This document shows, one piece after another, positions 5,372 to 62,784 of a stretch of 64,000 nucleotides of DNA. How positions within the stretch are numbered: position 1 is the stretch's first letter; each line of letters opens with the position of its first letter. The DNA is from Eledone cirrhosa (taxonomy: Eukaryota): contig OZ024748.1 of the NCBI GenBank assembly GCA_964016885.1, positions 28,644,001 through 28,708,000 on the forward strand, read 5' to 3'. A program made the position numbers and the translations under genes. The notes beneath the pieces were generated by a model that worked only from the letters and a program-made list of their open reading frames with translations, was not told where the DNA came from and made no database searches.

Positions 5372-5859
5372 ATATATTGTTATACTTTGGGAGGGTCATG
5401 TTGCCAATAAGAAACACACGCACCAGTTGCTTTCACTTCAATTTATTATAATAAATTTATAAATTTAGGAATTTATAAATTTCCGGTTGGTTGGTTCCAC
5501 AACCAGATGGTTGTTTATATATTGTCAAAGTTCTTTCGTCACACATTCTGTGACCTCTTCAGTGACTGGGGATTCTTTTCTTTGTTTTTGTGCCTCTCCT
5601 TTGTTCTGTCCTACGCCATCTTGTTTCTGTGTGTGAAACAAGAACTTTGACAATATATAAACAGCCATCTGGTTGTGGAACCAACCAACCAACCGGAAAT
5701 TTATAAATTCCTAAATTTATAAATTTATTATAATAAATTGAAGTGAAAGCAACTGGTGCGTGTATTTCTTATTGGCAACATGACCCTCCCAAAGTATAAC
5801 AATATCGGTTTCAACACACGTTTTCAGATAAAGAATCTTGCTAAACAAATTCAGAAACG

Positions 5860-5865: not shown

Positions 5866-5898
<33 letters not shown>

Positions 5899-5920
5899 GT
5901 ATAAAAATCAATACAATATA

Positions 5921-5998
5921 ATTACCTCATTACCAGAGGTTTCCCGAATGAGGCGAATACGAAATAAACGACTTCATTCGTTCGTCAGACGAGGCAAT
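5921..5998 (-). ncRNA. Type-I hammerhead ribozyme
   Basis: 10-bp stem I attgcctcgt/atgaggtaat; CTGACGA; stem II cgaatga/tcattcg; GAAA; stem III acc-tct-ggt; GUA cleavage triplet. Confidence 0.85.
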
Positions 5999-6789
5999 GT
6001 AAAACATGGGCAAATACCTAGAAAAACACATCAAGAAAATCAAAAAAAGATATAGATAAATGAAATAGAAATTGAAATATATAAAAATCTATCAAGAAAT
6101 ATAGTTAGGTGTGTGTATATGTATGTATATACGCTCACAGATGTGCATATATGTATATGCGCACATGTATGTGTATAGTGAGAAAGTGTGCGTAATTCTA
6201 AAATTTAGGGCAAATGTATCTATATGTCTGTATTATACAGACAGAAATGGTTACATCGTAAATATATGAATATGAAGGCGCGCGCATAAAACGCCTGCAC
6301 ACTCGTACACTTAGATGCGGAAAGAAAGGAGGTAAGGGAGTGTAATAATTAAAAGAAAAGTATCAGTCTCGATATATTTATAAAAATATAATAACGATAA
6401 ATTAGAAAGAAAAGATATTAGAAAGAAAAGATATTAGAAAGAAAAAATTAAAGAAAACAAAAAAAGGGGGGTACATACATACACAGACACGCGTGTCTCA
6501 CAAAAGAAATGTAAAAATAATTATGCTTATATACACACGCGCACTTACACTTCCATACGTTCGATACGTACATACACACACACACACACACATACTTATA
6601 CTCACGCATATAAACCTGTTTGCATGCCCACGTATGAAACTGAGTAAGTAAAAAAAGGGAAGGGGGGGGGGAGAAGAAAAAAGGAACAAAACATAAAACC
6701 GAGATGTCAAAAACACGGATATAAAGACACATACACATACGCATAACATATACATACACACACAAACACCTGTACACACACACATATAT

Positions 6790-6842
<53 letters not shown>

Positions 6843-7229
6843 TACATACACGCACGCGCGCGCACATACGTAGTCACTCATGTACATATATAAAAAGTAT
6901 ACACACATTAAGGCGTTCAGCCATATTGAAATGTGGATAAATAAGTACAAATATAAAATTGTAAGATAGGCTGCGCAAAAATAAAATAAAAATAAAAATG
7001 AAAAATATATCTGGATTGAAAAACACAAAAGACAAGTGTAATCAGTTAGTGGAAGAAAAAGGGAAGTAAAAGAAGGGGAAGTAAAAAATAGAAAATAGGA
7101 AGTGGAATGGAGAATAAAGGGGGGGGGGGTGCAGTAAAAATAAATAAAAGTGAAAATAAATGAAATTATTGACAAGGATAAAAATGAAAGTAAGTCAGAA
7201 AGGGTAATTAAAAAGAGATTAATAAGAGT

Positions 7230-8576
7230 TTATGGAGGATAAGTATCTGAAAGTGTGTTAAGTTTATATGAGCTGGAAAGCAGGTGTGATTTCATGTGTG
7301 GGCAACTGGTGAAAATTTCCGTCTTTGTGTTCAGGCAGGTCTTTGGTGATTTAAGATTTTGCAATATCCAAAATTTTTCATTTATGCTGAGCGTGCATTT
7401 TCTTGTTCCTCTAGCATATTTTTTAGATTGGTTCAAAATTGACCAATCTAGTTTATATTGGATGCCTTGGTCTTTCAAATCCCAAATTCTGCTAGCCAGA
7501 GCTGTTGTAAATCTTTTTTCTGGATGTCGAAAGGATGCGACATGTGAGTAATAACGCGTTTTGAATCTGTCTTGCGTCATACCCACATATCGTTCACTGG
7601 TGGCTGGATGGTTGTTGCTGATGGTTGTCACTTTAGCCGCATATACAATGGCTTTGGTGTTGCATTTACCTTGTAATGGGCATTCACTTTTGATTCTACA
7701 GGAGCAAGTTTGATTTTCTCTAGGTGATATTTTGTTGAGGATATAGGACTTAATAGGAGGACCGCAGGAATAGCTAATTTTAACACAGTTTCTGTTAAAG
7801 ATCTTATAGTATCTATGTGTTCTAGGGAAATGTTTATCTAGGAGTTCTAGGAATATTTTGCCTACATTAGTTTTAACTGCTAGAGAGTAGGGGGGTGTGA
7901 ACCAGATTATTTTTCTTTTCCTATTTTTATGTTTAATAGAGTTAGTATAGTTAGGTATGTATTTAATCGGTTCGCTAAAGCCGCTATTTTGGAGGGCTTT
8001 ATTATAGTAGGGGGATGCCTTATTAAAAATAGCTTCTGAGGAAGAGAGGGTGGAGATCCTACGGCTAATATTAGGGATAAGGTTTTTAAAAACTATAGGT
8101 GGATGGCAAGATCCTTTATTTATATATTTTAAGTTTTCATTAGGTTTATGGTATGGTTTATAAGAAGCAGTAGGCAAATCTAGGTTTATATCTAGGAAAT
8201 CTACGTTGGAAAGGTTAGTGTCAATAGTAATTTTAAGATTAAAACTAGCGAAGGTTTTTATTAAGTCTTTCCTTAATCTATCTAAGTTATGGCCTATGGT
8301 GGTATAGGAAAGTATTAGACCATCATCGCGATAAAGCCCAAAAATATGGTTAGGAAATTTTTCTTTAAGTGTATGTAAGAGGAATAGGCCGACCAGATCA
8401 CAAACCTCGGCACTGTCATAAGAGCCCATTGAGACATCGAATGGGTTCTCTCGGTTAGATATTTTTACCCAAGTGTCATTATCATTAAAAAGTAGAGTGT
8501 TCCTAGCATGCAAGATGACATCCTCTTCGACATCGGAGATATTAGTGAACCCTCTAGCGAAATTTAAAGCTTTCAC
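7230..8576 (-). CDS. PLE reverse transcriptase (C-terminal part) plus GIY-YIG endonuclease
   Basis: VSMGS, YRDDGL, FLDI, YHKP, SCHPP, CSC-x5-CPL-GKC linker, IVY...YVG, C-terminal LNTKTE..CPH. Confidence 0.9.
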   Translation of the reverse strand: MKALNFARGFTNISDVEEDVILHARNTLLFNDNDTWVKISNRENPFDVSMGSYDSAEVCDLVGLFLLHTLKEKFPNHIFGLYRDDGLILSYTTIGHNLDRLRKDLIKTFASFNLKITIDTNLSNVDFLDINLDLPTASYKPYHKPNENLKYINKGSCHPPIVFKNLIPNISRRISTLSSSEAIFNKASPYYNKALQNSGFSEPIKYIPNYTNSIKHKNRKRKIIWFTPPYSLAVKTNVGKIFLELLDKHFPRTHRYYKIFNRNCVKISYSCGPPIKSYILNKISPRENQTCSCRIKSECPLQGKCNTKAIVYAAKVTTISNNHPATSERYVGMTQDRFKTRYYSHVASFRHPEKRFTTALASRIWDLKDQGIQYKLDWSILNQSKKYARGTRKCTLSINEKFWILQNLKSPKTCLNTKTEIFTSCPHMKSHLLSSSYKLNTLSDTYPP

Positions 8577-8939
8577 TAAAAGGGTCTGAGTAATAGATGG
8601 GTAGAAATCTACGACGTCAAATTGGGTGAATCTAGAACTGATTTTGTTTTTAATATTATTAAACCAATGTACTACGGAAGAGCTATTTATCCATTGGAGT
8701 AATTTAGACTTACTTCTAATGTGTGTATTTAATTTATTTAAATTTTTTTTGCTGGGTTGATTAATCTACAACTTAGCAGGTTGATTAATCTACAGTCTTA
8801 GCAGGGTTGATTAATCTACAACTAGGGCGATTAATAAAGTCGGGTTTATGATCTTTAAGGGTGATATACGCAGAACGTTTAGCAAGTTTTTCTGTCCTAT
8901 TATCTATTTTTTAAGAAACAGCTAATTCTTTAGCTGAGG

Positions 8940-11274: not shown

Positions 11275-11284
<10 letters not shown>

Positions 11285-11778
11285 ACTTTGGGAGGGTCAT
11301 GTTGCCAATAAGAAACACACGCACCAGTTGCTTTCACTTCAATTTATTATATATTTATAAATTTATAAATTTACAAATTTACAAACTTATAAATTTCTGG
11401 TTGGTTGGTTGGTTGGTTCCACAACCAGATAGTTGTTTATATATAGTCATAGTCCTTTCGTCACACACTCTGTGACCTCTTCAGTGACTGGAGATTCCTT
11501 TCTTTGTTTCTGTGCCTTTCCTTTCTTCTATCCTACGCCATTTTGTTTCTGTGTGTGTGTTGTGTGCTCAGTTTGCGCATGCGCCACATCCGGGTGTCTG
11601 TGTGTGTTTGTGTTCATTTATTTATTTGTTTATTTATTTATTTATTTATTGTTGGTTGGTTGTTTGTTCTATGTGTGTGTGTGTTTCTTATTGGCAACAT
11701 GACCCTCCCAAAGTACAACAATATCGGTTTCAACACACGATTTCAGATAAAAAATCTTGCTAAACAAATTCAGAAACG

Positions 11779-11785
<7 letters not shown>
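11275..11785. mobile_element. Inverted-pair cassette, same family as 5372-5865
   Basis: ttgttgtactttgggagggtcatg... mirrored at ~11675-11722, same extra tail. Confidence 0.7.
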
Positions 11786-11825
<40 letters not shown>

Positions 11826-11828
<3 letters not shown>

Positions 11829-14139: not shown

Positions 14140-14358
14140 TATTAGAAAGTGAAGTTTTTTTACAAAATGAAAATAACAAGGTGTCCTACACGAGTGAAAG
14201 TATAATGAAAAAAGATGAAATCGAAAATGCAACTGGAGTCTTTTTTTTTTAAATATATTTATTTGGTTCCTTTACCGGTTTCGCAGTTCTTCTGCTTTTC
14301 AAAAGTATAATTGAGATGGGGCGTTTGTGGTTTCCACAAACCCTCCATCTCAATTCTA
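14140..14358 (-). mobile_element. PLE 3'-end remnant (family of 11826), ending in a short fold-back
   Basis: homology to 13830-14032; aattgagatgg..tttgtgg/ccacaaa..ccatctcaatt hairpin. Confidence 0.7.
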
Positions 14359-14361
14359 CTC

Positions 14362-15033
14362 AAAATAGTCTCTTACAATTAAATAGCTCAAGGAATGAGA
14401 TTTTTCCGAGCCGGACACAATAATTGAAAATAAAAGAGAGATAAACACAGATATATACATATATGTGTTCAAATCGTAAGGGACCAGGTTCGCTGGGGTG
14501 AAAAAAAAATCTGTTTCGTGAATTAACTGAAGGGAATTACCAGTTACCAGTATACGGTTCGGAAAAATCTCTTTCCTTGAGCTATTTAATTGTAAGAGAC
14601 TATTTTTAGTTTCTAACTCAATATATACCTTTGATATATTCGGCTCCTTCAATTTGTTGAGCTAAACTTGCCTGCTATTTTTAGTAGTATACGTTTATGA
14701 GACATGCCATGTGCGTTATTTTATATACGCTCACTATTCAGCCTTCTGAGATACTTAGTAGTGAAGAGTTTACTAATTTTACACCCACTGATGAGCAAAG
14801 AATTAGTAATTCTCTTCACTTAAATTGCGAAACAGTTTCACCAAAAGCTGTCTGGGTGTCTGGTAGTTACCCCATATCGGTTTGTATTTATTTTCTTGAT
14901 TTATTCTTTTAAATTGAGTCTGACAAACCCGTTAGTTAGTTTTTTTTTTCACCCTAGCGAACCTAGTCCCCTACGATTTGACCACATATATGTATATATC
15001 TGTGTTTATCTCTCTTTTATATTCAATTATAAT
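14362..15033. mobile_element. Non-coding hammerhead element with inverted permuted copy (retrozyme-like, ~482-nt monomer)
   Basis: 14420-14508 = rc of 14941-15030; 14362-14413 = rc of 14555-~14606. Confidence 0.75.
14781..14859 (+). ncRNA. Canonical type-I hammerhead ribozyme
   Basis: acaccca-CTGATGA-gcaa...ttgc-GAAA-cagttt..aagctg-TC-tgggtgt; 7-bp stem I, GUC site. Confidence 0.9.
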
Positions 15034-15393
15034 ATATATATATAGGTTATAGAGGTTGATGGTCAATTATACTGTCCATACTTAATGAGACCTATTGATA
15101 CTCACACTCTCCCATCCCCACTGGCTTTCGGCTGACTGCCACAAACGGGGTAGCTAGCAGTAAACTATATATAACAGGCCTGAATGGGTCATTGTTTGGT
15201 TGAGAGAGGGAACTGACAAGGCGAATTTCGTTGAAATCTGCAGTAGCTAATGGTCAACTTCCTTCGGACCTGCGCCTGCGCAGACCGGTGGGGGTGAATT
15301 GGTACTCACAAGGGAACGGATGAAGAACCCAAGAGCACACACTTCGTCCGTTCCCATGTCGATTCAATTTGGATTGCCCCGGAAACATAACAA

Positions 15394-17936: not shown

Positions 17937-18542
17937 ATTATATAAATCAACAAAGAACCCTTTAATACATTAAAAATCTGTAATCGCTGACAATGTTTCG
18001 GCCCAGTAATTAGGACTCTTCAGAGCAAGGAAAAGAAAAAAATATCAACGGCTAGAACAAGCCAAAATTCAGAAGAATAGAGAAATAGAAAAATAGAAAT
18101 TTAAATGTTACATTATAAGATATAATATGCAGGTAATATAAAAACAGGATAAGGAGGCAAGGTCTAGGATGTTAATAATAATATAATCCGAGAAATAATA
18201 TATAAAAAATATAATATAATACAGAAATAAAATTTAATATATATATATATACACACACACTCACACACATATATATACACACACATATACACATTTACAC
18301 ATACACATATTAACACAAAAATATATATATATATGCACTATAATAGAATAATCACCCTGACGGTGTGATTAAACAATACTAAAATCAAAGAAATATTGAC
18401 ATTAAAAAACATAAATACTACCAACGTACCATGCAAAGTCAACATAACATGTATAAAAACATAACGTATACCACAGGGTAAAAAATAATACCATAAAATA
18501 AAATAAAGTATGGTAAAAAAATATATATATAATAGACAATAG

Positions 18543-20427: not shown

Positions 20428-20472
20428 TTGCTCTGAAGAGTCCTAATTACTGGGACGAAACATTGTCAGCGA
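20428..20472 (+). ncRNA. Minimal type-I hammerhead (copies 17984-18028 minus; 60972-61009 plus)
   Basis: ttgct-CTGAAGA-gtccta/tgggac-GAAA-c-att-g-TC-agcga. Confidence 0.85.
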
Positions 20473-20695
20473 TTAAAGATTTTTAATGTATTAAAGGCTT
20501 CTTTGTTGATTTATATAATTTTTTCGGCTCTGTTTGATAACATTGAGCTATCTCTTGTACTGTCATTTCTCTAATGCGACGAGTGTGTTTGACTCTAATG
20601 CACTCAAGTGTTTTTATCTTATGTATGTATGTATGTATGTATGTATGTATGTATGTATGTATGTATGTATGTATGTATGTATGTATGCATGTATG

Positions 20696-34145: not shown

Positions 34146-35280
34146 GCCACCCAGCTCTTTTTCTGTTGAGGAACTGCTTCGCCATGCCGAAGCTCCTCTA
34201 TACCCTTCGTAGCGCTCCGTGCTACACTCACGCATCTCTCCTCGCTGACCTCGATACTTTACCTGTCAGGTATGGCGGCCGTGGCCTCCGGTCCCCGATC
34301 TCACTGGCTTTGCCCGCGTTTCTTTCGTCGGTAACCTCATGCCGCGTCCTCGTCAGCAGGGTTCTCCAAAACACAATAGAACCCTCAGTGTTCAGAGAAC
34401 GTGAGACCGCCTGTGAGACGTGGGACCGGCTCGGACTTAGCCCAGTAGATGACCCTCCTCCTTCTCCCCTTGCTGATGTCAAGTCCCCCCGAAGCACTTG
34501 GGATGCCATCCAGTGCAGCCTGGCTTCACACAGGCTCACGCGCCAGCTCGACCAACACCGCCTTACCTGTTTTCGTACGGCCTCCAAACCCCACAGTGGT
34601 GCCTGGCTCCATGCCCTGCCCTTCTTCTCCACTGGTACGCTGCTAGACAACAATAGCCTGCGCATCGGCGTTTCCTTGAGGCTCAGCCTCCGGATCTGTG
34701 AGCCACACCAATGTCGCTGTTGATCCACCGTGGACTCTTTCGACCTCCACCCGCTTTCCTGTCGCCACAGTGCCGGCCGTCTTCCACGCCATGCTGCCCT
34801 CAACGAGGTCATAAAGCATGGCTTGGTCGCTGCAGGCTTCCCTTCCCAGCTCGAGCCGGTGGGACTGAACCGAGGGGACGGCATGACCATCTTCCAGTTC
34901 CGCGGTGGCAAACCCCTCGTCTGGGATGCCACTTGCACCGACACTTTCTGCAGCCGCAACCTGGTGCAGTCTGCGACTAACCCAGGTTCTGCTGCACGTC
35001 GGGTTGAGGAGGCCAAACTCCTCAAATACCGGTCGCTCTCCGACAGGTGTGCGGTTATACCCTTGGCAGTGGAGATTTCTGGTACCCTCGGCCCTAGGGC
35101 TACCTCCCTACTCACCGCCATAGGCGCTGAGCTGGCCAGCCGCATGTGTGAGTCTCGCGAGCTGGAGTGGCTTTTCCAGCGCGTCTCCCTTGCCGTCCTT
35201 CGGGGAAACGCCTTCTCCATTCTGTCCGCCGGGGTTGTGGAGAGACAAGCCGATTATATTACGAATTCTGTTGAATAGTC
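34143..35280 (+). mobile_element. CRE-clade LINE 3' part, same family as 24100-26370
   Basis: high similarity to the 24-kb copy; CxC..HPLSC..RHAALN, WDATC, FQRVS..RGNA. Confidence 0.85.
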
Positions 35281-38100: not shown

Positions 38101-38422
38101 AAGAATGCAAGGAGCAAATATCAAGTAAAATAACGGAGTAAAGGATTCGCGTATAATCCTATAAATAAATTGAACAGTATAGGCTGCCATCTCTAGCAGC
38201 TTGTTCTGTTCATACCACCGGTTACTGCCTCGCGCACGTATTTCCCTTATATTTACACGCGCTACAGGTGGTTTACTATAGTTCTCTCTCTCTAGTAGTG
38301 CGGACAATAACGGTCTCTCCACATGCTGATGACCCACAGAGCCGAATTGGAACCCACTAAAATGGCGAAACAATCTCCTGGTGAGTTTGTACATGTGTGA
38401 TTTAGGTATGAGGTTGGTTTCT

Positions 38423-39044
<622 letters not shown>

Positions 39045-42693: not shown

Positions 42694-43222
42694 AAAGAAT
42701 AGAGGTGTAACACACAAGTTATTATATATTGGTAAACGGAATAGAAAATGCTGACAAATTGTTCACAGTTGAAAAATGGTTTAATTAGGAATAAAAGAGT
42801 ATTAGTGATTGTATGGGTTAGTATTCAGTTGTGGTTTTAAGTTTTTAAATTTTTACCGGTTGCGCATTTCTAAATGCTTTTCAAAAATAATTTTGAGATA
42901 GAGTGTCCGTGCTGTTTGCTCTGATCTGATTAGTTTGGGGAATTCTACCTGTTTTTATGTTAAAAAAGTGGCTCCAGCGTTATTTTTGTGTTGCAAAAAT
43001 GCTTGTGGTCAAAACAATTTTGATTGGTCGGTAGAGGTCATGTGAATGTAAAAAGTTGATTTTGCGCCAAGACTGTTTTTATGTTAAAAAAGTGGCTCCA
43101 GCAAAAATTCTTGGTCAAAACAATTTTGATTGGTCGGTAGAGGTCATGTGGATAAAAAATTGGTTTTGCGCCAAGATTGAGAAATGACTCTTTCACAACA
43201 AATATGTGTGTGTGTGTGTGTA

Positions 43223-43309
<87 letters not shown>

Positions 43310-43416
43310 ATGTGTGTGTGTATGTGTGTGTGTGTGTGTGTGTGTAGTAGTAGTAGTAAGGTGTTCGATGCTGCGACAATGGCCAGCAGCGATGTGTGTC
43401 AAATGGCTATTAAGAT

Positions 43417-43529
<113 letters not shown>

Positions 43530-44005
43530 GCAGAGTCATTCGAAGGTCAAAAGATATTTTTCAGCTTTTGTCTTATACGGAGAAGTGCGTGTGTGTGTGT
43601 GTGTGTGTATAAGTCTCTTTGTATGTTGATGTACGCGTGTGTATGTGTTTGTGTATATATATGTGTGTGTGTGTGTGTGTGTGGGTGGACCAGTATTTTT
43701 TGCCCCCTGGTAAAATGGTGTACATTATTCGATTTTTTCAGTAAAATCGGTTCTCTTAATAGAACATCAAAAATCTTAACAATAAAAGGTGCGAAATGAT
43801 ATTCACTATATATATATACACACATACATATATTCACTACATATATATATATATATACATATATACATACATATATATGCACATATATTTTTTTGTATTG
43901 CACCATAGAGCATGTGTGTTTACGTGTGTCATTGTGTTTATATGTGGGTAGAGATGTGTGCTGATGTAGGTATGTATGTTGACGTGTGTATGTTGTGGGT
44001 TCGTC

Positions 44006-45191
44006 TTAGGGAGAAGTGTTTAGATGGGGTCCGTATTTGTTAATGAAGTAAGATTCCTTGCTGATGCGCTGGGTGTGGGTGGAATTATCTTTAAATTTGT
44101 AGAGGGGAAAGATTCTGAAGTTGGGATGATTTTGGGCGGCACAGGTATCAATGTGTTCACTCAGTGGTATTTTCCTGTATTCCCGTATTTTAATTTGGGA
44201 TCTATGGACAGTCATGCGTTGGCGGAGGCTGTTTTGGGTCTGGCCTATGTATTGTTCTCGACAACCTGAACAAGTTAATACATATATTAGATTTTCCGAT
44301 GCACATGTGAAATTGTGTTTTACTATAAAACGTTGTCCATCTTTGAAATAGAATTCCGAACCCTCTATTAGGTTGATGCAAATGCCACAGTTGGGTCTAT
44401 CGCATTTTTTTACTGTGGGTTTCGTTGTTGTGGTTGGCAGTACTTTGGCATGTGTTAAGATGTTTTTCATTGACTTGGATTGTCTTTTGCTCTTTATGAT
44501 ATCGTGTGTTCGTAGAATTTGGTTCATTCTATGGTCCTTTTTCAATACAGGGATGTTCTGGAGGATGGTGTCAAAGGCCTCATTGTTGAGGGGGTTGTGT
44601 GTGGAGATGTATGGAAGAGCTTTTAGTTTTGGTTGATTTACTTTAGGGTGTCTAAGGTCCTGGGTACTGAGTTTTAGGGCACGTTGGATTCCATTGTCAA
44701 TTAGTGATGCAGGGTAGTCCCTGCCTATGAGTGTGTCCTTTAGTTCTTGTAGCCGTAAGTAGCAGATGTTTTTATTGGAGACTATAGTACAGATTCTCTT
44801 GGCTAAGTTGTAGGGAATATTCATTTTAACGTGTCTAGGGTGGCAAGAGTTGAAGGGGAGATATTGCTTGGAGTCTGTGGGCTTGTAGTATATGTCTGTT
44901 TCTATTTTTTTGTTATGGATCTTAATGAGGATGTCGAGGAAGGGGAGTTGTTGATGGCTGTATTCCATCGTGAAGTTAATATTTGTGTTGAGCCCATTTA
45001 TAAGGGTGTGAAATTCTTTAAGTTTTTCGATGTTTTCGTGCCAAAGGATGAAGCAGTCATCTAGATATCGCTTCCAGTTCCTTTCAATGTGTAAGTGGAG
45101 GGTTTTTCCAAATTTGTTTAGGACTTTAGTGTAGAGGGTGATTTCCAGGTATCCCATGACTAGGTTGGCATAAGTAGGGGCTGTTTTCGTT
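44006..45191 (-). pseudogene. Inverted 5'-truncated duplicate of the PLE RT/GIY-YIG ORF
   Basis: protein matches the C-terminal part of the 46576 ORF apart from one K/N change seen. Confidence 0.92.
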
Positions 45192-45211
45192 AAATCAACA
45201 CCAACCTATCT

Positions 45212-46438
45212 TTGCTGGTCGACAAACTTGACTCCACAAATAAGGAAACCGCCACCGGATACAAACCCTCCGAAATCGGCGACAAACTCCAAAACCTTTG
45301 CGATACTATCCAAACTATGTTCACTACTACCAACCCAGGAAAAACCAACGAAGAACCATGTGAGATTGATTCACACAAAATGAAAATTCGAACAATTCCA
45401 AAATGGAACAAATCCCTCAGAGACAGAAAGTTCTCATTCTGGAAGATGATACAAAATCACAACAAAGCAGAGATATATGAAAAATGGCTTAACTCAACCC
45501 CTCTAACTCTCCCCCGTAAACTACAAATAAAGTCCATTCCAAATGAACCCGAACCTCAAAGACACCTTAGGGAAAGAATGGCATTGGAAAAAATGAAGAC
45601 AGAAATTGAACTTCTTAAACTGAGGGCCCAGACAAATGAGGAAAAAATCAAAACCATCGATGAAGAGATCCTCCTGGAAATCAATAACAAAACTGAAGGC
45701 CCCAAGGTAGAGAAGATCTCCAAATTATGGAAAGGGGACTGCAACAGAGAAGAACTGAAATCCCTTCAACGCCGGGGAAAAAGTGCCGCTTGGTTCCTAC
45801 ACTATGAATCGACTTTTCAAACGGATTACACCTCCAATAACCCGTTCATAAAAATAGGAAAACCCATAACTGAACCGCACAACAACTTCTCAAACCCCCA
45901 AGCCTCAAACAAACGAAGAAGGAAGCACCACACCGAAGATGAACTTCCCAACCTCGCTACCATAAGAAGGAACAAAAACCCAAGAAATCATCTCCCCCAG
46001 AATGACATTTACAACTTTCCCCCTTCAAGGAGACACCATACCAAATCACTCAACTACTACGCGGATTCCTCATCGTCAAACATAGGGAAAAGATACCACC
46101 GCCATGATAGATGCAACAACTTCCCCGCTTCAAGGGGACAGCAAGGTAATTACCATTTTCTCAACTCTCACTTCCACAATACACAACAAACCCACACCAC
46201 ACGATACAACCAACAACGTAGGCCACTTATAACACCACAATACAACATGGCACATAGAAACACACACCCATACTCGCAGTACAGGAACACCCCATTCAAT
46301 CTACAACCACCAACCCGAACCACATTTTACAACAACAAGGAATATAACAAACACAGGAGACCACTTAACATCAGCAGACAACCCCTCTACCCCAACCATT
46401 TTTTAGACACAGCACACAGATACAGGCAAACAAAATAA
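45212..46438 (+). CDS. PLE ORF1 (coiled-coil plus basic low-complexity tail), probably 5'-truncated at the inversion junction
   Basis: 408-aa open frame; heptad-like ERMALEKMKTEIELLKLRAQTNEEKIKTID; R/H/N-rich C-terminus. Confidence 0.7.
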   Translation: MLVDKLDSTNKETATGYKPSEIGDKLQNLCDTIQTMFTTTNPGKTNEEPCEIDSHKMKIRTIPKWNKSLRDRKFSFWKMIQNHNKAEIYEKWLNSTPLTLPRKLQIKSIPNEPEPQRHLRERMALEKMKTEIELLKLRAQTNEEKIKTIDEEILLEINNKTEGPKVEKISKLWKGDCNREELKSLQRRGKSAAWFLHYESTFQTDYTSNNPFIKIGKPITEPHNNFSNPQASNKRRRKHHTEDELPNLATIRRNKNPRNHLPQNDIYNFPPSRRHHTKSLNYYADSSSSNIGKRYHRHDRCNNFPASRGQQGNYHFLNSHFHNTQQTHTTRYNQQRRPLITPQYNMAHRNTHPYSQYRNTPFNLQPPTRTTFYNNKEYNKHRRPLNISRQPLYPNHFLDTAHRYRQTK

Positions 46439-48723
46439 CACAAGACAGGGAGGAGAAACCGATAGTAATAAAAATTATCAATCTTATTAGTGCAGAACCA
46501 ACACCCAACCTTATCAACTTACTCTCCAAAGGTCTTAAATTCACACCGACCCCACTACGTCCTAACTACTATGAAATGAAGGAAGACATCACAGACTTCT
46601 GTAGAAAGTTACGACTTAGTGAACAACTATTCGACCAGTACAATGAGGATGAATCATTAGCCAGAAATAGAAGCAATTACACCCCTTCAAAAGGTAGAAA
46701 TAAAATCCTGGACGAATTCTGTGAACACATCACAAACTTCCCTTACCAACACTTGCACAGACAAAAACACAAGCCAAACCTCAACAAGAAAGAATGGGAA
46801 GAATTAAATAGATTAAAAACCGACAGAACCATTACAATTAAAGAGGCTGATAAAGGGAGTACAGTAGTCCTAATGGAGACAGAATTCTATATCAACTTAG
46901 CGCTCTCCACTTTGGAAAACGAAACATACTACGAAAAGGCTGAACACTACAATCAACAGAAAATTATGAGAAACCTAAAAACTCTAATCAACCAATACAA
47001 AGAAGGACTCACTAACAAGGAATTCAGCTTCATCACAGACTTCACAAGTAAATCCAGCCTTTTCTACGGTATCCCTAAAGTACATAAAAGCGAATCAATC
47101 AGTAAGGCATGCAAGGAAGCCACAGACATAGTCATCAATGTCCCCTCACCCAATGATCTCAAATTAAGACCTATAATAGCAGGCCCCGCTTGCGAAACGC
47201 ACCGTCTTAGCAACTTCATTGATACCCTTCTCAAACCCTTCCTCAAGCACATCAAAAGCTATATAAGGGACGACCTAGATATGCTCAATCACCTCCCTAA
47301 TATGCCACTTTCTGAACAAACCCTACTAGTGACGTTCGATGTAGTCAACCTATACTCCAACATCCCCCACAACCTAGGAATAGAAGCTATCCAATTCTGG
47401 CTGGATAATTTCCACAATGAACTCCCACAACGCATCAAAAAAGAATTCGTGATAGAGGAACTCAAATTTATCTTGGAGAACAATTACTTCGTTTTCAATA
47501 ACAAACCCTACACGCAGAAATCTGGGACCGCTATGGGAACGAAAACAGCCCCTACTTATGCCAACCTAGTCATGGGATACCTGGAAATCACCCTCTACAC
47601 TAAAGTCCTAAACAAATTTGGAAACACCCTCCACTTACACATTGAAAGGAACTGGAAGCGATATCTAGATGACTGCTTCATCCTTTGGCACGAAAACATC
47701 GAAAAACTTAAAGAATTTCACACCCTTATAAATGGGCTCAACACAAATATTAACTTCACGATGGAATACAGCCATCAACAACTCCCCTTCCTCGACATCC
47801 TCATTAAGATCCATAACAAAAAAATAGAAACAGACATATACTACAAGCCCACAGACTCCAAGCAATATCTCCCCTTCAACTCTTGCCACCCTAGACACGT
47901 TAAAATGAATATTCCCTACAACTTAGCCAAGAGAATCTGTACTATAGTCTCCAATAAAAACATCTGCTACTTACGGCTACAAGAACTAAAGGACACACTC
48001 ATAGGCAGGGACTACCCTGCATCACTAATTGACAATGGAATCCAACGTGCCCTAAAACTCAGTACCCAGGACCTTAGACACCCTAAAGTAAATCAACCAA
48101 AACTAAAAGCTCTTCCATACATCTCCACACACAACCCCCTCAACAATGAGGCCTTTGACACCATCCTCCAGAACATCCCTGTATTGAAAAAGGACCATAG
48201 AATGAACCAAATTCTACGAACACACGATATCATAAAGAGCAAAAGACAATCCAAGTCAATGAAAAACATCTTAACACATGCCAAAGTACTGCCAACCACA
48301 ACAACGAAACCCACAGTAAAAAAATGCGATAGACCCAACTGTGGCATTTGCATCAACCTAATAGAGGGTTCGGAATTCTATTTCAAAGATGGACAACGTT
48401 TTATAGTAAAACACAATTTCACATGTGCATCGGAAAATCTAATATATGTATTAACTTGTTCAGGTTGTCGAGAACAATACATAGGCCAGACCCAAAACAG
48501 CCTCCGCCAACGCATGACTGTCCATAGATCCCAAATTAAAATACGGGAATACAGGAAAATACCACTGAGTGAACACATTGATACCTGTGCCGCCCAAAAT
48601 CATCCCAACTTCAGAATCTTTCCCCTCTACAAATTTAAAGATAATTCCACCCACACCCAGCGCATCAGCAAGGAATCTTACTTCATTAACAAATACGGAC
48701 CCCATCTAAACACTTCTCCCTAA
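46348..48723 (+). CDS. PLE reverse transcriptase plus GIY-YIG endonuclease (first ATG 46576; frame open from 46348)
   Basis: IINL..LLSKGLKFTPTP, ADKG, YGIPKVHK, RPII, FDVVNLYSNI, GTAMG, RYLDD, FLDI, SCHP, CDRPNCGIC, LIY..CSGC..YIG. Confidence 0.95.
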
Positions 48724-49117
48724 GACGAACCCACAACATACACACGTCAACATACATACCTACATCAGCACACATCTCTACCCACATATAAACACAATGA
48801 CACACGTAAACACACATGCTCTATGGTGCAATACAAAAAAATATATGTGCATATATATGTATGTATATATGTATATATATATATATATGTAGTGAATATA
48901 TGTATGTGTGTATATATATATAGTGAATATCATTTCGCACCTTTTATTGTTAAGATTTTTGATGTTCTATTAAGAGAACCGATTTTACTGAAAAAATCGA
49001 ATAATGTACACCATTTTACCAGGGGGCAAAAAATACTGGTCCACCCACACATACACACACACACACACATATATACACAAACACATACACACGCGTACAT
49101 CAACATACAAAGAGACT

Positions 49118-49180
<63 letters not shown>

Positions 49181-49235
49181 TTCTCCGTATAAGACAAAAG
49201 CTGAAAAATATCTTTTGACCTTCGAATGACTCTGC

Positions 49236-49278
<43 letters not shown>

Positions 49279-49364
49279 ATCTTAATAGCCATTTGACACA
49301 CATCGCTGCTGGCCATTGTCGCAGCATCGAACACCTTACTACTACTACTACTACTACTACTACT

Positions 49365-49403
<39 letters not shown>

Positions 49404-49405
49404 CT

Positions 49406-49438
<33 letters not shown>

Positions 49439-49766
49439 ACACACACACATATTTGTTGTGAAAGAGTCATTTCTCAATCTTGGCGCAAAACCAATTTTTT
49501 ATCCACATGACCTCTACCGACCAATCAAAATTGTTTTGACCAAGAATTTTTGCTGGAGCCACTTTTTTAACATAAAAACAGTCTTGGCGCAAAATCAACT
49601 TTTTACATTCACATGACCTCTACCGACCAATCAAAATTGTTTTGACCACAAGCATTTTTGCAACACAAAAGTAACGCTGGAGCCACTTTTTTAACATAAA
49701 AACAGGTAGAATTCCCAAAACTAATCAGATCAGAGCAAACAGCACGGACACTCTATCTCAAAATTA

Positions 49767-49803
49767 TTTTTGAAAAGCATTTAGAAATGCGCAACCGGTA
49801 AAA
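49767..49803 (+). ncRNA. Variant minimal hammerhead (U3-A8, C13) in PLE 3' UTR; copy 42851-42887 (minus)
   Basis: ttt-TTGAAAA-gcat-ttagaa-atgc-GCAA-ccgg-TA-aaa. Confidence 0.6.
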
Positions 49804-49921
49804 ACTTAAAAACTTAAAACCACAACTGAATACTAACCCATACAATCACTAATACTCTTTTATTCCTAATTAAACCATTTTTCAACTGTGAACAATTTGT
49901 CAGCATTTTCTATTCCGTTTA

Positions 49922-50017
<96 letters not shown>

Positions 50018-51066: not shown

Positions 51067-53456
51067 ATCGGGCTCACATACATTCTCTGTGCGTGATTTG
51101 GCTCAGCTCAGCCAATCAGCGCCAGTAGAAGAGGATGTATCCCTACGCGTTCGGAGGGAGAAATAGCCCGCAAAGATTTGAGGACGCTATCACTTCCAGG
51201 CTAGACCGTGTTAAGGTAAACAACACTTGTTCTTTTGCTCCGTAAGCACAAACAATATGTAACGACAAAACATTACCTACGAGCCTGACCAAACGCCTTC
51301 AGCCAGCCGCCCGTATTTTCTCTTGTAATCTTAATTGAATTATTTCATTATTCTTGGCATGCCAGCTTAATTCACTTCTTAACCTTTATTAATAAATAAT
51401 GTAAAAACAAGCTAAAATTCGTTGTCGATATTCCTATCGTATCTTTCTACCAAACCTGGTTCCTCGTGGCAACAACACAACAATTCTCTAAATATTCTTC
51501 TCCGCTAAATTCGAATTTATACTTAAACCAAATTGGTGACAATATATCTACACCAAATGTGTGACCCTCGACGATTAAGTATGAACACGCAGCCTATTTG
51601 AATTCGCCAGTCGTTTTAACGGAAATGTGGAGTGGCTTAACATTTGGAATATTCGAATCGGGTTTCTAGACTCGCTTAGCGTAAGTCCATAAAATTCATA
51701 ATATTCCATTTGTTGAAGCACGCGACCTACACAATATTTCTGTTATAACTTTCATGGTAACACAAGTAACTCACGCATACAGACGAACACAAAAATACTA
51801 CACAAAAGAAAGAGTTTTTTCGACGTCTAACAAAAAATTTCTCTTTTGGATTGAAAATTATTATTGCGAGCATAGTTTGATAAAAACAAAAAACAAAAAG
51901 AATTTAAAAAAAAAAAAAAAGAAATTCTCTGGATATAGAATTTTGCTCGGCTTATTCAGTTTTTCCATGGCACAGAAATGGAGTATTTCCATTTCGAATC
52001 AATACCTTTCACTAAAATCGGGCAATTGGACTGATCAAATTCACATTCATGCCAGTTTTTACAAATCGGAGGTGAGCAAAGTGAGACAGGTGCACAAAAA
52101 GAGTGGGGTGAGCAAAGTGACCAGGAAGATTTTGATGGCAGAAAATGTACAGAACTTCTGACTTTGGCTAGATTGTGCAACTTTGGTCCCCCATCAAATT
52201 GCCCAGATCCCACTGCACGTCTAAAGCTAGCTAAACGAATGCACAAGGCCATACATGAACTTTCACCTGATTTGACTGTGTCCCAAATTCGGACAAAAAT
52301 GGAAATCTTTGAGCAGTGTAAAGGATTCCATAGGGACAACATCTATTGCATAGGACAGTCTGACTGCACAAATGGACTTGAACTGATTCGAAGTATGGCT
52401 CCTCACTCTCCTCGCATCCGTACAATTCTGACTCCTATGACATTTCAATCTTGGAAGGAAATTGGTCAATGTTTGATGATCTAGTAAATCCCCAAAACAT
52501 GTCCAACAATCTGCTAAGCCGTTTGAATGAAATAGTGGAAAATGAAAATGAGAGCTTGCATTCAGAATCCTCAATCATGGCCAATTTTGCATCCATTATC
52601 AAACATTTTAATAAAGAGATTCAAAAAATGAAAATCAACTCCTGTGACATTTGCAAACAACGAGAATTAGATGCTAAACTCAAAGTCTGGGAGGATTGGA
52701 GCCCTTTGACAAATCCCTATCTCCTGGAAACCATTCAACAAAACTACTCTCTACCATGTACGATTTGCTCTACATGTAGAAATAGTCTTGTCAAAAAGTC
52801 GATACCATCATTGGCTTCAATCAATGGCCTAGAAGTGGTCAAAATTCCAAATATGTTGTCAAAGTTGAACATGTATGAGCAGATTTTGATCCAAATGGCC
52901 AATTGCTTCATCAATGTCATTAAATTGTCACCCTATCGTTTCAAAGGTGCACCATCACATCTAGTGGCTGCTATTAAAGGAATAGCAACTCACATGCCAC
53001 TACCAGTAGAAAACACAATCAATCATGTAATGAAAAAACTCCCATCGAATCAAAATGATGCATTTGAAATAATTGTTGATAGTGTTCCAACTAAAAAGGG
53101 CACAATTTGGCGATCGCTAGTGAATATGCAAAATGTCTTTGATGCCTTGGAGTGGCTGAAAAACAACAATGACATTTACAATGACATTTTGATAGACAGA
53201 ACCACAAATTTAGAGGACATTGTTACATGCACTGGTGAAAATGTTTCCATCAATTTTCCACACATTCTCACACAAACTGGTGCTGAAACAGTCTATGAAC
53301 ACCATACTGTACAGCAAATCAAGCCTGCACTCCCAAATCAAAAGGACCTTGAACTGTTTCGCATGAAACGAGTTGAAGGTACTATTCTTCCGGACAATGA
53401 TCCAAACCTGGATCTGATGTGCTTCCCCCCACTTATTCCCTAAAGGAAAATTTGGA

Positions 53457-55337
53457 ATGATGCACATGAACAGACCCCATGGTAGAGTAAAGCCCTATAT
53501 GTTCATCAGAAACAGACTCAGACATGAGGACCCCCGGTTTCGTAGAGACAGTCAGTACATTCTCTCCAATTTGGACAAGGCTGACAAAAGAGCACTAGAT
53601 TCTGGCATTTATGCCGTAATGAAATCACTCAAAAGTCCAAAATTGACACTTGCTCAATTTTATAAAAGATTGGAAGACAATGATGAACAATTGGAAAGTG
53701 GTTTGTCAATGATGATGGCGAATGTTCCTGGAACAAAGCCATTTTGGGAACGCAAGTGCTCCGACTTGAATGCCATAGATGAGAAATTCGGTCCTGCCCA
53801 TTTGTTTATCACTCTTTCATGTGCTGAATACTTTTGGCCAGGCTTGAGGGAATTTTTGGAAAAACTCAATGAAGACATTGCAAATGTTGAAACAAGGCCG
53901 ATAGGGAATCTCTGTGCAAATGATGTTGTGGCTGTCAGTGAGTACTTTCACCATCGTTTTAGTGCTGTTTTTCATGATGTAATTTTAAATAAAAAAGGCC
54001 CATTTGGGGAAATTATTCATTACTTTTGGCGACTCGAGTATCAACAACGTGGTGCTCCTCACATTCACCTTAAAGCCTGGGTTCGGGACAGTGTAATTTT
54101 TGACAAAGATCCTAAAGAAAAAAACAAGCAATTTATTGAACGCTGCATTACTTGCCGGCTACCATCCCCTGTGGCCAGCCCAAACTTGGCAAATCTCGTT
54201 AGACGGTTCCTAGTCCATACTTGTGGCAAAGCATGCTGGAGAATAGTGAGGAGAGGGAAAAATGTTCGTAAAAAATGCCGTTTTGGTTTTGCACGTGCAG
54301 TGGGGCCATTTCGGTTTTTCTCAGTTTCTGAAAGTATCAAATCACGAAAAAATGGTAATGGGACAAAACAACTGTACCAATTGGAAAGAAAAGAATCAGA
54401 AAAGTACATAAATGACTACAATCCATGTTTACTTCTAGCCTGGCAAGCAAATATAGATGTGCAATACATTGGTGAGAATAGTATGATTTTGAATAGATAT
54501 GTCACCTGCTATCAGACTAAGGCTGAAAAAAATGAGACTGAGGGAGTGTGGGCGAATCTGGATCATTCCAAAACAAAATATGGGAAATACAAAAGTGCTG
54601 GACTGCAATTGCTTGGGAAAAGGGATACAGGAGGGTATGAAGCTGCTGACAAACTTTTGGGGCATCATTTTTACGGGTCATCAGATCATGTTATTTGGGT
54701 AGGTGCAGACATTCCCAGTAGGCGCGGCCGCAGATTGAAATCTCAAAATGATCTCGATGAACTGAGTGAACACTCAATGGACTTGTTCTACGAGAACATG
54801 GTGGAAACTTTTTACAAAAACCGGCCAAAATTCCTGAAAGATTCCTCCTTATATGAAGTTGCCAGCAAATATGAGAGGACACAAAAAAAACCTGTTGACA
54901 AAGATGTGGCTACAAAAATGAAATTGCTCAATGACAAGGGGTATTTTCATAGTGTAAAAGAGCGGGTAGTTAAAGCACCGAATATACAGCTCAAAAATGA
55001 CACAAAAGAACGTTATTACCACAATCTTCTAATGCTGTTCAAACCCTGGCGCGATGAGGACAAAGATTTATTGGGGGGCTGCAAAACATTTGAAGAGTCC
55101 TTTCATCTGTGTGCAAACAATTTGCCTGATATGGTGAATTTTCAAAATGTGAGGAAAAAAATCACTGATGCAGTTGAGATGGGGAAGAGGTTGGAGAAGG
55201 AGGGTGAAAAGGAGGGAGAGGTCGGAGAAGGACGGAGAGAAGAGGGGGAGAAGGAGGCAAGAGATGAGGCTGGTATTGATGTTCCCCAAATTCGAGATGT
55301 AGATGAAACTGCTCTACAGACAAAAGAAACAGCTTAA
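53457..55337 (+). CDS. Helitron Rep (HUH endonuclease) segment
   Basis: Rep motifs 1-3 present. Confidence 0.88.
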   Translation: MMHMNRPHGRVKPYMFIRNRLRHEDPRFRRDSQYILSNLDKADKRALDSGIYAVMKSLKSPKLTLAQFYKRLEDNDEQLESGLSMMMANVPGTKPFWERKCSDLNAIDEKFGPAHLFITLSCAEYFWPGLREFLEKLNEDIANVETRPIGNLCANDVVAVSEYFHHRFSAVFHDVILNKKGPFGEIIHYFWRLEYQQRGAPHIHLKAWVRDSVIFDKDPKEKNKQFIERCITCRLPSPVASPNLANLVRRFLVHTCGKACWRIVRRGKNVRKKCRFGFARAVGPFRFFSVSESIKSRKNGNGTKQLYQLERKESEKYINDYNPCLLLAWQANIDVQYIGENSMILNRYVTCYQTKAEKNETEGVWANLDHSKTKYGKYKSAGLQLLGKRDTGGYEAADKLLGHHFYGSSDHVIWVGADIPSRRGRRLKSQNDLDELSEHSMDLFYENMVETFYKNRPKFLKDSSLYEVASKYERTQKKPVDKDVATKMKLLNDKGYFHSVKERVVKAPNIQLKNDTKERYYHNLLMLFKPWRDEDKDLLGGCKTFEESFHLCANNLPDMVNFQNVRKKITDAVEMGKRLEKEGEKEGEVGEGRREEGEKEARDEAGIDVPQIRDVDETALQTKETA

Positions 55338-55529
55338 TACAGATCAAATATCCATATACAATCTAATTGTATCAGCAATTGAAAAACAGGAATTGCATTG
55401 GAATTCGGAAAAACCACTACCAAGGTGCAGATGTGATGATTGCCCACAATTTCTCAAATTTGTCTCTGGTGTAGGAGGTACAGGGAAAAGTTTTCTCATT
55501 GATATAATTTCTGACAAAGTTACTCAAAT

Positions 55530-57170
55530 TTGTTGCAAGAGAAATGGGGCCCAGTAGTCATTTGTGCACCAACTGGTATGGCTGCTTTCCAAATCAAGGG
55601 GACTACTTTGCACAGGCTCTTGAAACTCCCAGTCCAACATGGAAAGTCACCATCATATAGGGAATTAGAAAGTGATGAACTCAAAATTTTGCGATCCACT
55701 CTAGAGGGTGTCCGTCTGATAATTATCGATGAAATAAGTATGGTCAGTCATCTGATGTTGGCATTTATCCATAGGCGTCTAGATGAGATTTTTGGGGACC
55801 AGAGTCAAATGACCAGCCCTTTTGGAAAAATAAATATTCTGGTTTTTGGCGATCTACTTCAACTTCCACCAGTAAATGAAAAAACACTATTTTCCAGTAT
55901 TTCTGCATATGATGCTAAAAGGACTGGTCTGGGAATAAGTGGGCAGTCACTGTGGAAATTTTTCGACTATGATGAGCTCACTATAAACATGCGGCAAAAA
56001 AATGACAGTGAAAACTATTCTGAAATGTTGGGTCGAATAAGAATAGGATCACCTACAGACATGGACATCAAGACTTTGAGTGAACATTGCCTATTCCCAG
56101 ATCGCAGGGCAACAATGAGAGAGGCAACTGAGAAACTAATGCAACTTTGCACATTACCTAGTCAAAAACTTGTCTGTATTTTGCCTGTCAATGAATCTGT
56201 AGATGAATTCAACAAGGAAATGCTTAAGCATGCCAACATCAGTACAGTTGTAGTTTTTGCTGAGGACTCAGGAATGCGCCAGAAAGGTCGTAAAAAAAAG
56301 ACAAAGTCAAACAAATTTTCCAAACCCAAAAAGGCATCAGACACTGCTGAACTTGAGACTGAATTGCAAGTTGGAGTTGGGGCCAGAGTAATGCTGAGAC
56401 GAAACATTAATTTGGTGAAGGGGCTATGTAATGGCGTCATGGGAACAGTGCAAAGCATGGTCAATGGAAAAGATGGGAAAATGGGACAAATCATTGTGGA
56501 ATTTGATCACATGATAGGCAATGATATTTCAATAGAAAAGGTGACTGCAGACTATGAAATCTCTCCTGGTGTGTATGTGACACGAAAACAGTTCCCACTA
56601 AGCCTTGCCTATGCCATCACCATTCATAAATCACAGGGAATAAGTGTTGATGGGGTCATTGCTGATCTTGGTCCTCTGTTGTTCGCAGATGGAATGGCCT
56701 ATGTTGCACTTTCACGAGCTAGGAAACTCTGCAATGTCTATTTGATAGATTTTGACCCACGAACCCTGATCATGTGTGACAAATCTGCTTGGGAAGAGTA
56801 CAACAAATTGCGTTCTACAACAAAATTGCCTCCACTTGGACCATGTAGAAATAAACCACCATGCATGGCTTCTGAATCTTGCATGCCAAAAAAACGATCA
56901 TGGCGAATGTTGAATGTGGACAACCCTTCTGAATATGCTCCTCCTACCAAAAAACCTAAATTAGCTACAATTTCCATGCTCACTCTCATGATTAGACTAC
57001 AAAATAAGGAAAATGCCTGTTTTGCCAATTCCACACTTCAAGCTATTGCCCAATTGCCCAAACTTTGGGAAACTTTGTTGTCTACCAAATTACTCAGTCC
57101 AGTTGTTCAGGAAATAGCAAATATTGTCAATGATTCAAAAATTGAACTTGCCCAATCTTCACAACATTGA
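55530..57170 (+). CDS. PIF1-like helicase segment with C-terminal USP-like Cys box; Walker A lies in upstream frame 55303-55557
   Basis: SF1B helicase motifs; LQNKENACFANSTLQAI. Confidence 0.88.
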   Translation: MLQEKWGPVVICAPTGMAAFQIKGTTLHRLLKLPVQHGKSPSYRELESDELKILRSTLEGVRLIIIDEISMVSHLMLAFIHRRLDEIFGDQSQMTSPFGKINILVFGDLLQLPPVNEKTLFSSISAYDAKRTGLGISGQSLWKFFDYDELTINMRQKNDSENYSEMLGRIRIGSPTDMDIKTLSEHCLFPDRRATMREATEKLMQLCTLPSQKLVCILPVNESVDEFNKEMLKHANISTVVVFAEDSGMRQKGRKKKTKSNKFSKPKKASDTAELETELQVGVGARVMLRRNINLVKGLCNGVMGTVQSMVNGKDGKMGQIIVEFDHMIGNDISIEKVTADYEISPGVYVTRKQFPLSLAYAITIHKSQGISVDGVIADLGPLLFADGMAYVALSRARKLCNVYLIDFDPRTLIMCDKSAWEEYNKLRSTTKLPPLGPCRNKPPCMASESCMPKKRSWRMLNVDNPSEYAPPTKKPKLATISMLTLMIRLQNKENACFANSTLQAIAQLPKLWETLLSTKLLSPVVQEIANIVNDSKIELAQSSQH

Positions 57171-60915: not shown

Positions 60916-61160
60916 TATGAAAATAAGTTTTTGGCTTGTATTGGCCGATAGTGCTTCTTATAGCTTTAATTGCCCTGATGAGTCCTTAATAGGACGAAAC
61001 ATTGTTGGCTAATAAAGACTTTTGATGTATTGAAGGCTTCTTTGGTTTATTTTCATAATTCTTCGGCTCTGTTTAATTACATTGAGCTATACTTTTACTG
61101 TCATTTCTATAATACCAAGAGGGTGTTTAACTACAACACACTCTTGTATTTTAATTCTTA
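60915..61160 (+). mobile_element. PLE 3' end with hammerhead 60972-61009 (family of 20415-20620)
   Basis: gcc-CTGATGA-gtcc/ggac-GAAA-cattg-TT-ggc plus shared tail. Confidence 0.8.
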
Positions 61161-62150: not shown

Positions 62151-62653
62151 TTAAGGTTACATAACCTACAGTACTTCAATCCACTCCGATATGCACTTGC
62201 GCTGGAAAGTATATCCCATTTTAAGGTGAACTGTTGGTTGCGTTCACGTTGGCGAGCGTAGTCACAAAACGGTGATCAGGATGTTTAATTGAGAATCGAT
62301 GACGGTACCAGCGAGACTTAAACGAGGTGGTGGTAGACCCGATGTAATACCAGTGTAGTAATTAACCATTACTGCATCTAGGATAATCCTATACCTAATA
62401 TACAGCCACTTGGCACGTAACGCCATAACATCTAAATATAAAAAGGCTAACCGTACGACCTACCACAACATCAATACAGAAGCCAAAGAAGCTGCATAAC
62501 AACAATATTCTAATTTTCTAATCAACTCGAACATATTTTATTCCGGAGATTCGCAGTTATATCCCTTACACCTTTCGCTTGGGTGAAGTGACCGTTTCTG
62601 CGCATGCGCGTTCATACGGTTGTTCTTCCTGTTCCGTATAACCATTACCAGTC

Positions 62654-62692
62654 CGAGCTGAAGATCGGCATAAGGTGAAACAATTGTTCTCG
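62654..62692 (+). ncRNA. Minimal type-I hammerhead
   Basis: cgag-CTGAAGA-tcggcataaggt-GAAA-caattg-TT-ctcg; palindromic stem III, weak stem II. Confidence 0.6.
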
Positions 62693-62784
62693 ATATGGTG
62701 AACTAACTGTTATGTTACTACTTCTACCAAACTCGTCCCATGGACTGAGTGCTCTACCACTACGGATATTACCTTCCAGTGTTC

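Follow-up and report, generated by a model that had tools for sequence, protein, structure and literature searches.

The segment at 14358–15044 of the 64,000-nt stretch of Eledone cirrhosa DNA analyzed here (hereinafter the window) is a single head-to-head insertion. The family to which it belongs is dispersed and non-coding, measures about 515 nt and carries a type I hammerhead ribozyme (HHR) motif. We consider it probable that this mini-element is non-autonomous and is copied in trans by the RT/GIY-YIG protein of Hydra-clade PLEs, with bulged hairpins setting the RT starts. The attribution to the Hydra enzyme follows from the presence of these hairpins at the ends of the coding Hydra PLEs as well.

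The unit itself occupies 14555–15031 on the forward strand (482 nt, without a tail; profile match to model positions 1–523, E 2.6e-110). A unit length of about 482 nt, as originally annotated, is thus valid for this copy, but the family unit is about 515–519 nt and the window copy has been shortened by deletions. It opens with hairpin 1 (14555–14583, reading GGTTC in place of GGCTC), 0–7 nt before which units end. Hairpin 1 begins segment A (14555–14640), an optional 85-nt tail that in other copies is repeated past the unit end, and segment A is followed by hairpin 2 (14641–14663), with tails stopping 1–7 nt ahead of it. Further downstream, a 5′ flank at 14761–14778, complementary to HHR loop II (14801–14819) and potentially forming a competing helix or pseudoknot with it, precedes the type I hammerhead motif at 14781–14859, for which cleavage is predicted after C14852. 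A (TA)n run at 15032–15044, the likely target, marks the 3′ end; all these features are on the forward strand. On the reverse strand, an inverted 5′-truncated copy corresponding to the last 93 nt of the unit (14420–14512) is followed by 56 of the 85 nt of its tail (14358–14413), which includes an intact hairpin 1 at 14413–14385. In alignments, 14512–14420 matches the unit end at 14938–15030 (93.5% identity over 93 nt) and, after a 6-nt gap (14419–14414), 14413–14358 matches the unit start at 14555–14610 (94.6% over 56 nt), confirming the first-pass observation that the inverted copy passes the unit end and resumes 6 nt later in the unit start. The inverted piece lies where it had been placed but extends further, to about 14540, via a fragment of HHR loop II (14513–14540, reverse strand; 82% over 33 nt, E 0.003) joined to it by either a deletion or a template jump. 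The tail is cut by an adjoining palindromic repeat at 14143–14360, whose family also occurs at 11826, 13831, 39912 and 60384.

Pattern searches of the 3.0-Gb assembly recovered 596 sites with the segment A/hairpin 2 junction (≤2 mismatches) and 300 with the exact HHR pattern, as against none in the controls of either; an exact 38-nt pattern found only 3 sites, but it is subfamily-specific and hence gives no copy number. The 29 top copies show a mean pairwise identity of 88%. In 18 of them a 6-nt spacer after the unit end leads back into the first 85 nt, which mostly give way to (TA)n, while the remaining 11 stop at the unit end. The head-to-tail continuity, proposed earlier as a check, is therefore borne out. 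The converse possibility, that the block at 14555 and the tail come from separate insertions, fails at the level of the family because the order of unit end, 6 nt and unit start, together with the 5′ fragments, recurs across it. The units are preceded upstream by 3′ fragments that differ in length and are either in tandem or inverted, and the copies are mostly dispersed 1.0–1.4-mers that have tails of the PLE type as well as inverted 5′ pieces.

When 323 distinct matches were mapped onto a natural read-through copy, 65 ended in the bins immediately preceding hairpin 1 and 68 in those preceding hairpin 2 (55 of the latter at one base), with the 5′ starts being spread out; unexplained peaks at other positions are provisionally read as alignment breaks. 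Likewise, at loci chosen partly by motif, of 135 sites followed past the unit end, 83 enter hairpin 1 and 35 a stretch of TA, and of 97 followed past segment A, 46 enter hairpin 2 and 45 TA, with the exact end base blurred to 0–7 nt by TA microhomology. The family therefore displays the hallmarks of PLE mobilization, namely fixed 3′ ends, an optional tail, variable 5′ truncation, and partial tandem and inverted 5′-truncated copies; a target-site duplication would be difficult to discern within TA-run targets. Its longest ATG-started frame across a doubled unit is 71 aa, and the RT and GIY-YIG ORF between pLTRs that characterizes an autonomous PLE is absent from the mini-element. Two other classes of short element were considered and set aside: a MITE or TIR element, as the inverted parts are optional and of varying length, and a tRNA-derived SINE, as no tRNA gene was found. 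Sister mini-families of about 60% identity retain both hairpins and an HHR whose stem I differs (matched by the regex in 3 of 10), a divergence which indicates that the non-coding lineage is old. A distant relative is also present in the window at 38182–38457 on the forward strand (profile E 3e-6; HHR-like core at 38326). At one locus elsewhere (L252; G000:C1:141141583-141144669) the mini-element family and a sister mini-family are interleaved, which suggests insertion into each other's TA-rich ends. A metagenome scan returned two loci, neither with a full 5′ end, and the stretches examined there had no hairpin.

The first-pass annotation had described a single junction hairpin, cggctc…gagct. 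The motif is indeed present, but the tail is bounded by two such hairpins, at 14555 and 14641, rather than one. In the window it is found at these two positions, at 14413 (reverse strand), at 20525 and at 61064, the pattern giving six matches where 30 Markov resamples averaged 0.03, with the sixth, at 34872, being unrelated. The lower stem of the hairpin is GCUC/GAGC; above it come a bulge of 2 nt on the 3′ side, mostly UU, and an upper stem that differs between families, with variants such as GGAAA/TTTCC, TGTT/AACA, TGTC/GACA, TGTAG/CTACA and CC/GG. While the lower stem is invariant, which by itself is no sign of pairing, the first upper-stem pair is Watson–Crick in all of 18 hand-picked family representatives, related within families, across four pair types. 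Hairpin 2 of the window subfamily has a single upper pair and folds no better than shuffled sequences (z −0.86). Genome-wide, 309 sites carry a double hairpin. Among the first 30 (two pairs of which overlap), 15 lead to a Hydra ATG and 15 to mini-elements, three of the latter being of the window family.

The coding elements at which the same hairpin occurs point to the candidate helper. As had been noted for PLE ends near 20525 and 61063, the hairpin follows the breakpoint at two HHR-bearing ends in the window: the 3′ end and tail of a coding Hydra family at 20433–20622 (forward strand; HHR core at 20433, hairpin at 20525–20549) and that of a second coding Hydra family at 60975–61160 (forward strand; hairpin at 61064–61088, right end approximate). 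The latter is, by eye, near-identical to the 3′ ends of two loci sampled elsewhere (L105 and L110); for the former, the sequence beyond the tail at two loci (L043 and L056) crosses hairpin 2 and reaches an ORF with the RWR and DKT motifs. Across 20 coding loci with long ORFs, the DKT motif is present in all, a CxCX5C-type linker in 19 and RWR in 18. Judged by motifs, the helpers display the features of the Hydra clade, namely an RWK-like motif, DKT, CxCX5C, a C-terminal EN, an HHR and a (TA)n target. The earlier designation of the helper as CxC-linker (Hydra-type) PLEs was therefore right as to the clade, whose ends bear RWR, DKT and CxCX5C, but the linker is CxCX5C and not the CxC of Naiad. 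The coding Hydra elements share a layout of HHR, about 90 nt, hairpin 1, 92–104 nt, hairpin 2, about 65 nt and ATG, and one or both hairpins precede the ATG in 16 of the 20 loci, the other four appearing, by eye, truncated or mutated. By comparison, a single weak match, about 890 nt upstream, was obtained at 20 loci of one non-Hydra family, assigned as Neptune/Nematis-type by its linker motif, although the 5′ ends of that family may not be complete. In the Hydra family with a 719-aa frame in the window (7230–8765), one of five loci has a variant of the hairpin, in which the bulge is TA. This family is young, with at least 150 copies at 89–100% identity among the best candidates scored, and the window holds a 5′-truncated copy of it at 5870–8765 (reverse strand; HHR at 5988). 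Also in the window, at 17945–18035 on the reverse strand, is a tail-less end of the Hydra family found at 20428, which stops a few bases before the hairpin 1 position.

Several further HHR-bearing or mobile elements share the window. A second short HHR family is seen at 5378–5805 and 11275–11780 in an inverted arrangement, with cores at 5562 and 11484 (reverse strand); as no bulged hairpin was found there, it probably depends on another helper clade. Two HHR-like ends of another family, 81% identical, lie at 1074–1233 and 62624–62782 on the forward strand. A PLE at 42723–49931 codes for RT and GIY-YIG domains in two frames (45194–48723) and has an inverted 5′ copy of 99–100% identity, marking a young family. 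The run of ORFs at 52382–57170 on the forward strand resembles a Helitron Rep/helicase in its motifs.

We propose that the Hydra protein would bind a hairpin of the mini-element RNA and nick (TA)n DNA, with priming on the AU-rich bases 0–7 nt 5′ of the hairpin. A start at hairpin 1 would yield a tail-less insert, while one at hairpin 2 would yield an insert with the 85-nt tail. We infer the two internal starts by analogy with Poseidon, for which the in vitro work described by Frangieh 2024 (PMC11167929) places the PLE tail between two internal RT start sites. The Poseidon element PAc thus resembles the mini-element in having an optional tail bounded by two starts, but, as described there (Frangieh et al. 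2024, PMC11167929), its starts involve one AC-rich stem-loop within the ORF, whereas here there are two copies of a conserved bulged hairpin, situated 3′ of each end and within the 5′ UTR. Alternatively, the hairpins might act at another step, in EN recognition on DNA or cDNA or in the resolution of an intermediate, rather than in the choice of RT starts. This would agree with the account in Craig 2021 (PMC8557442), which ascribes the tail to EN-mediated resolution, and with the tail requirement for recognition by the D. virilis Penelope EN, as cited in Frangieh 2024 (PMC11167929). However, the reported coincidence of the Poseidon tail with the interval between in vitro RT start sites (PMC11167929), and the G–U pairs in the stems, which suit RNA, make such a role improbable.

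As the first-pass annotation had allowed, the unit might be only the pLTR of a coding PLE that is yet to be found. We regard this as extremely unlikely. Of 30 loci in which segment A runs on to hairpin 2, none leads to an ORF, 28 carrying on as the unit and two breaking off. Across 30 + 30 loci, the copies were not seen to have upstream sequence in common, and the pattern combining segment A, hairpin 2 and a Hydra ATG had no match in the genome. A profile of 17 natural units gave a best E of 0.001, away from the ends, against 120 PLE loci; in a blastn comparison of two copies of the unit with 80 PLE loci, the matches listed were all TA-rich. Similarity to the ends of an autonomous family was thus not seen in these searches, the hairpin motifs alone being common to both. 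The position of the HHR differs too, lying mid-unit about 175 nt from the end in the mini-element as compared to about 90 nt before hairpin 1 in the coding families. Although the parent search covered sampled loci and patterns, and the protein searches scored the best candidates only, which leaves some room for such a parent, we consider the pLTR reading largely refuted already. At two loci (L135 and L155), Hydra RT fragments near the element lie past a TA run or the unit end and are read as separate insertions. Since no parent element matches the unit beyond the motifs, the preferred reading, copying in trans by a Hydra-clade enzyme, names the helper by clade rather than by family.

The ribozyme raises a separate question as to the template. 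The motif at 14781–14859 combines a 7-bp stem I, CUGAUGA, a 4-bp stem II, GAAA, a stem III of 6–7 bp and GUC at 14850–14852. It thus has the type I core (CUGANGA, GAAA and UH with stems I–III), which a regex finds intact in 19 of the 29 top copies, while Rfam at gathering thresholds yields no match in the 64-kb window. With its 7-bp stem III it is larger than the HHRs of the Hydra PLEs. In 35 copies stems I–III are 94–98% paired, and the outer pair of stem I has changed from AU to UA in a compensatory manner in 13. The same copies show 17 pairs between the 5′ flank and loop II, 90% paired, with three changed on both sides. As a regex was used to select these copies, and as they represent two subfamilies, the covariation counts are inflated and not independent, and for two of five measures shuffles often equaled the observed value. 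The flank/loop II helix is the predicted minimum-energy fold of the window copy (z −2.8). Hence, the ribozyme, called fully canonical at first, merits this as far as its sequence goes, but when the flanks are included the competing helix is the fold predicted, with stems I and II having a probability near 0. The pseudoknotted hammerheads described by Perreault et al. 2011 (PMC3088659) likewise pair loop II with sequence beside stem I, though the pairing here is longer at about 17 bp. By analogy with Perreault 2011, the 8-bp core of the helix might form a pseudoknot that activates the ribozyme; at its full length the helix is more likely to displace stem II, with which it could probably not coexist, and may represent an off state. 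In either case the conserved helix, by competing or pseudoknotting with the ribozyme, likely modulates its cleavage.

Linear templates alone would be shortened with each generation; we infer that either a circle or template jumping is needed. We lean slightly towards the view that rare two-ribozyme loci release unit-length RNA, which circularizes, and that run-around copying of such circles would produce the more-than-unit inserts. Circles have been proposed for PLEs, as outlined by Cervera and de la Peña 2014. Two HHR cores spaced 503–533 nt apart were found as five matches at four loci (three dimers and one trimer), using an exact pattern that passes over degenerate arrays, while the 300 single HHR sites come from a different exact pattern; the window locus, with one HHR, is not such an array. 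Neighboring units are 94–97% identical in three arrays, as against the family mean of 88%. One tandem pair (L170) is only 83% identical and hence reflects separate insertions. The same parasite and helper might instead use a linear template throughout, with template jumping generating the more-than-unit inserts and the ribozyme being held off by the flank/loop II helix or trimming ends only. The rarity of the two-ribozyme loci, the prediction of the competing helix as the minimum-energy fold for 15 of the 35 copies, the frequent switching evident from the inverted and mosaic 5′ pieces, and the reported lack of effect of Poseidon HHR mutants on insertion in vitro (Frangieh 2024, PMC11167929) all favor this linear route. 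Against it stand the conservation of the HHR core and stems with compensatory change, the retention of an HHR with a different stem I by the sister families at about 60% identity, and the arrays of 2.2 near-identical units, which fit run-around copying. On balance we find the circle-free route rather unlikely.

The mini-element could also be viewed as a classical non-LTR retrozyme, i.e., a tandem satellite expressed as circular RNA, with the scattered monomers being its dead offspring. It shares with the animal retrozymes of this class (Cervera and de la Peña 2020, PMC7229834; Li et al. 2026, 10.64898/2026.07.22.740005), as they are described in these works, its non-coding nature, type I HHR, head-to-tail junctions and a proposed PLE dependence, and it is AT-rich and includes the three dimers and one trimer. 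However, long arrays are absent by the exact pattern, and the inserts bear PLE tails and inverted pieces. The monomer of about 515 nt exceeds the 150–450 bp described in Cervera 2020, while falling within the 51–972 bp in Li 2026. In place of arrays, the family consists of dispersed 1.0–1.4-mers with clear PLE hallmarks and a cis-signal linking it to a helper clade. Moreover, Li et al. 2026 (10.64898/2026.07.22.740005) report pLTR homology for 24 of 57 Xenopus families, and none of that kind is seen in the mini-element. We therefore hold the classical interpretation to be very doubtful. The initial label of retrozyme-like is apt insofar as the unit is non-coding, with a type I HHR and head-to-tail junctions, but not for the mostly dispersed family, in which two-ribozyme arrays occur at four loci.

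The closest parallels to the mini-element as a PLE parasite are with the Hydra-clade PLEs themselves, which, as portrayed in Craig et al. 2021 (PMC8557442), have in common with it an HHR, (TA)n insertion, an optional tail and tandem or inverted 5′-truncated copies. The twin hairpin is common to the mini-element and the coding Hydra families of the same genome, from which the former differs in having no ORF and no detectable homology past the hairpins. The tail is 80–86 nt in the mini-element and 92–104 nt in the coding Hydra families here, as compared to the 30–40 bp given in the literature (PMC8557442). The non-autonomous Chlamys PLEs, such as MRC1 (PMC8557442), offer another precedent, being non-autonomous and pLTR-like head-to-tail as is the mini-element; yet, in the description available (PMC8557442), they resemble autonomous 3′ ends and belong to a clade without a canonical HHR, whereas the mini-element shares only the short hairpins. 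Non-autonomous PLEs (PMC8557442) and a PLE origin of animal retrozymes are thus already in print.

The hairpins appear to extend beyond this genome. By eye, the architecture occurs in three of six published Hydra consensi, coral and sea-cucumber elements among them: in the Hydra-1_Ajap consensus of the supplement of Craig et al. it occurs twice at the 5′ end, with the consensus starting at hairpin 1, and the tails of Hydra-2_Ajap and Hydra-2_Amil contain it as well. In Hydra-1_Crog it is only degenerate; it is absent by eye from the Hydra-1_Obim consensus and is not assessable in that of Hydra-1_Amil. We tentatively suggest, as a possibility falling a little short of likely, that the duplicated GCUC/NN-GAGC bulged hairpin is a clade-wide RNA signal placing the Hydra RT at its two internal starts, which would explain the tail, and that an old, independent lineage of ribozyme circles of about 0.5 kb parasitizes Hydra elements through mimicry of this hairpin pair alone, with the helix as an off-switch. 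The main text of Craig 2021 has no mention of a hairpin, stem-loop or bulge, and no description of the bulged hairpin pair was found in the literature searched, whose scope lay outside most subscription journals, Repbase, Dfam and the supplements of Li 2026; the family may already be cataloged.

The choice of internal starts by PLE RTs, and with it the optional tail, has been addressed by one in vitro study of one Poseidon element. A hairpin before both end points that is common to helper and parasite, in mollusc-like, coral and sea-cucumber Hydra elements, offers a direct target for mutation. The mini-element is in turn a candidate for the minimal cis-requirement for copying in trans, and would connect a retrozyme-like RNA with a named helper clade through a mechanism, in addition to co-occurrence.
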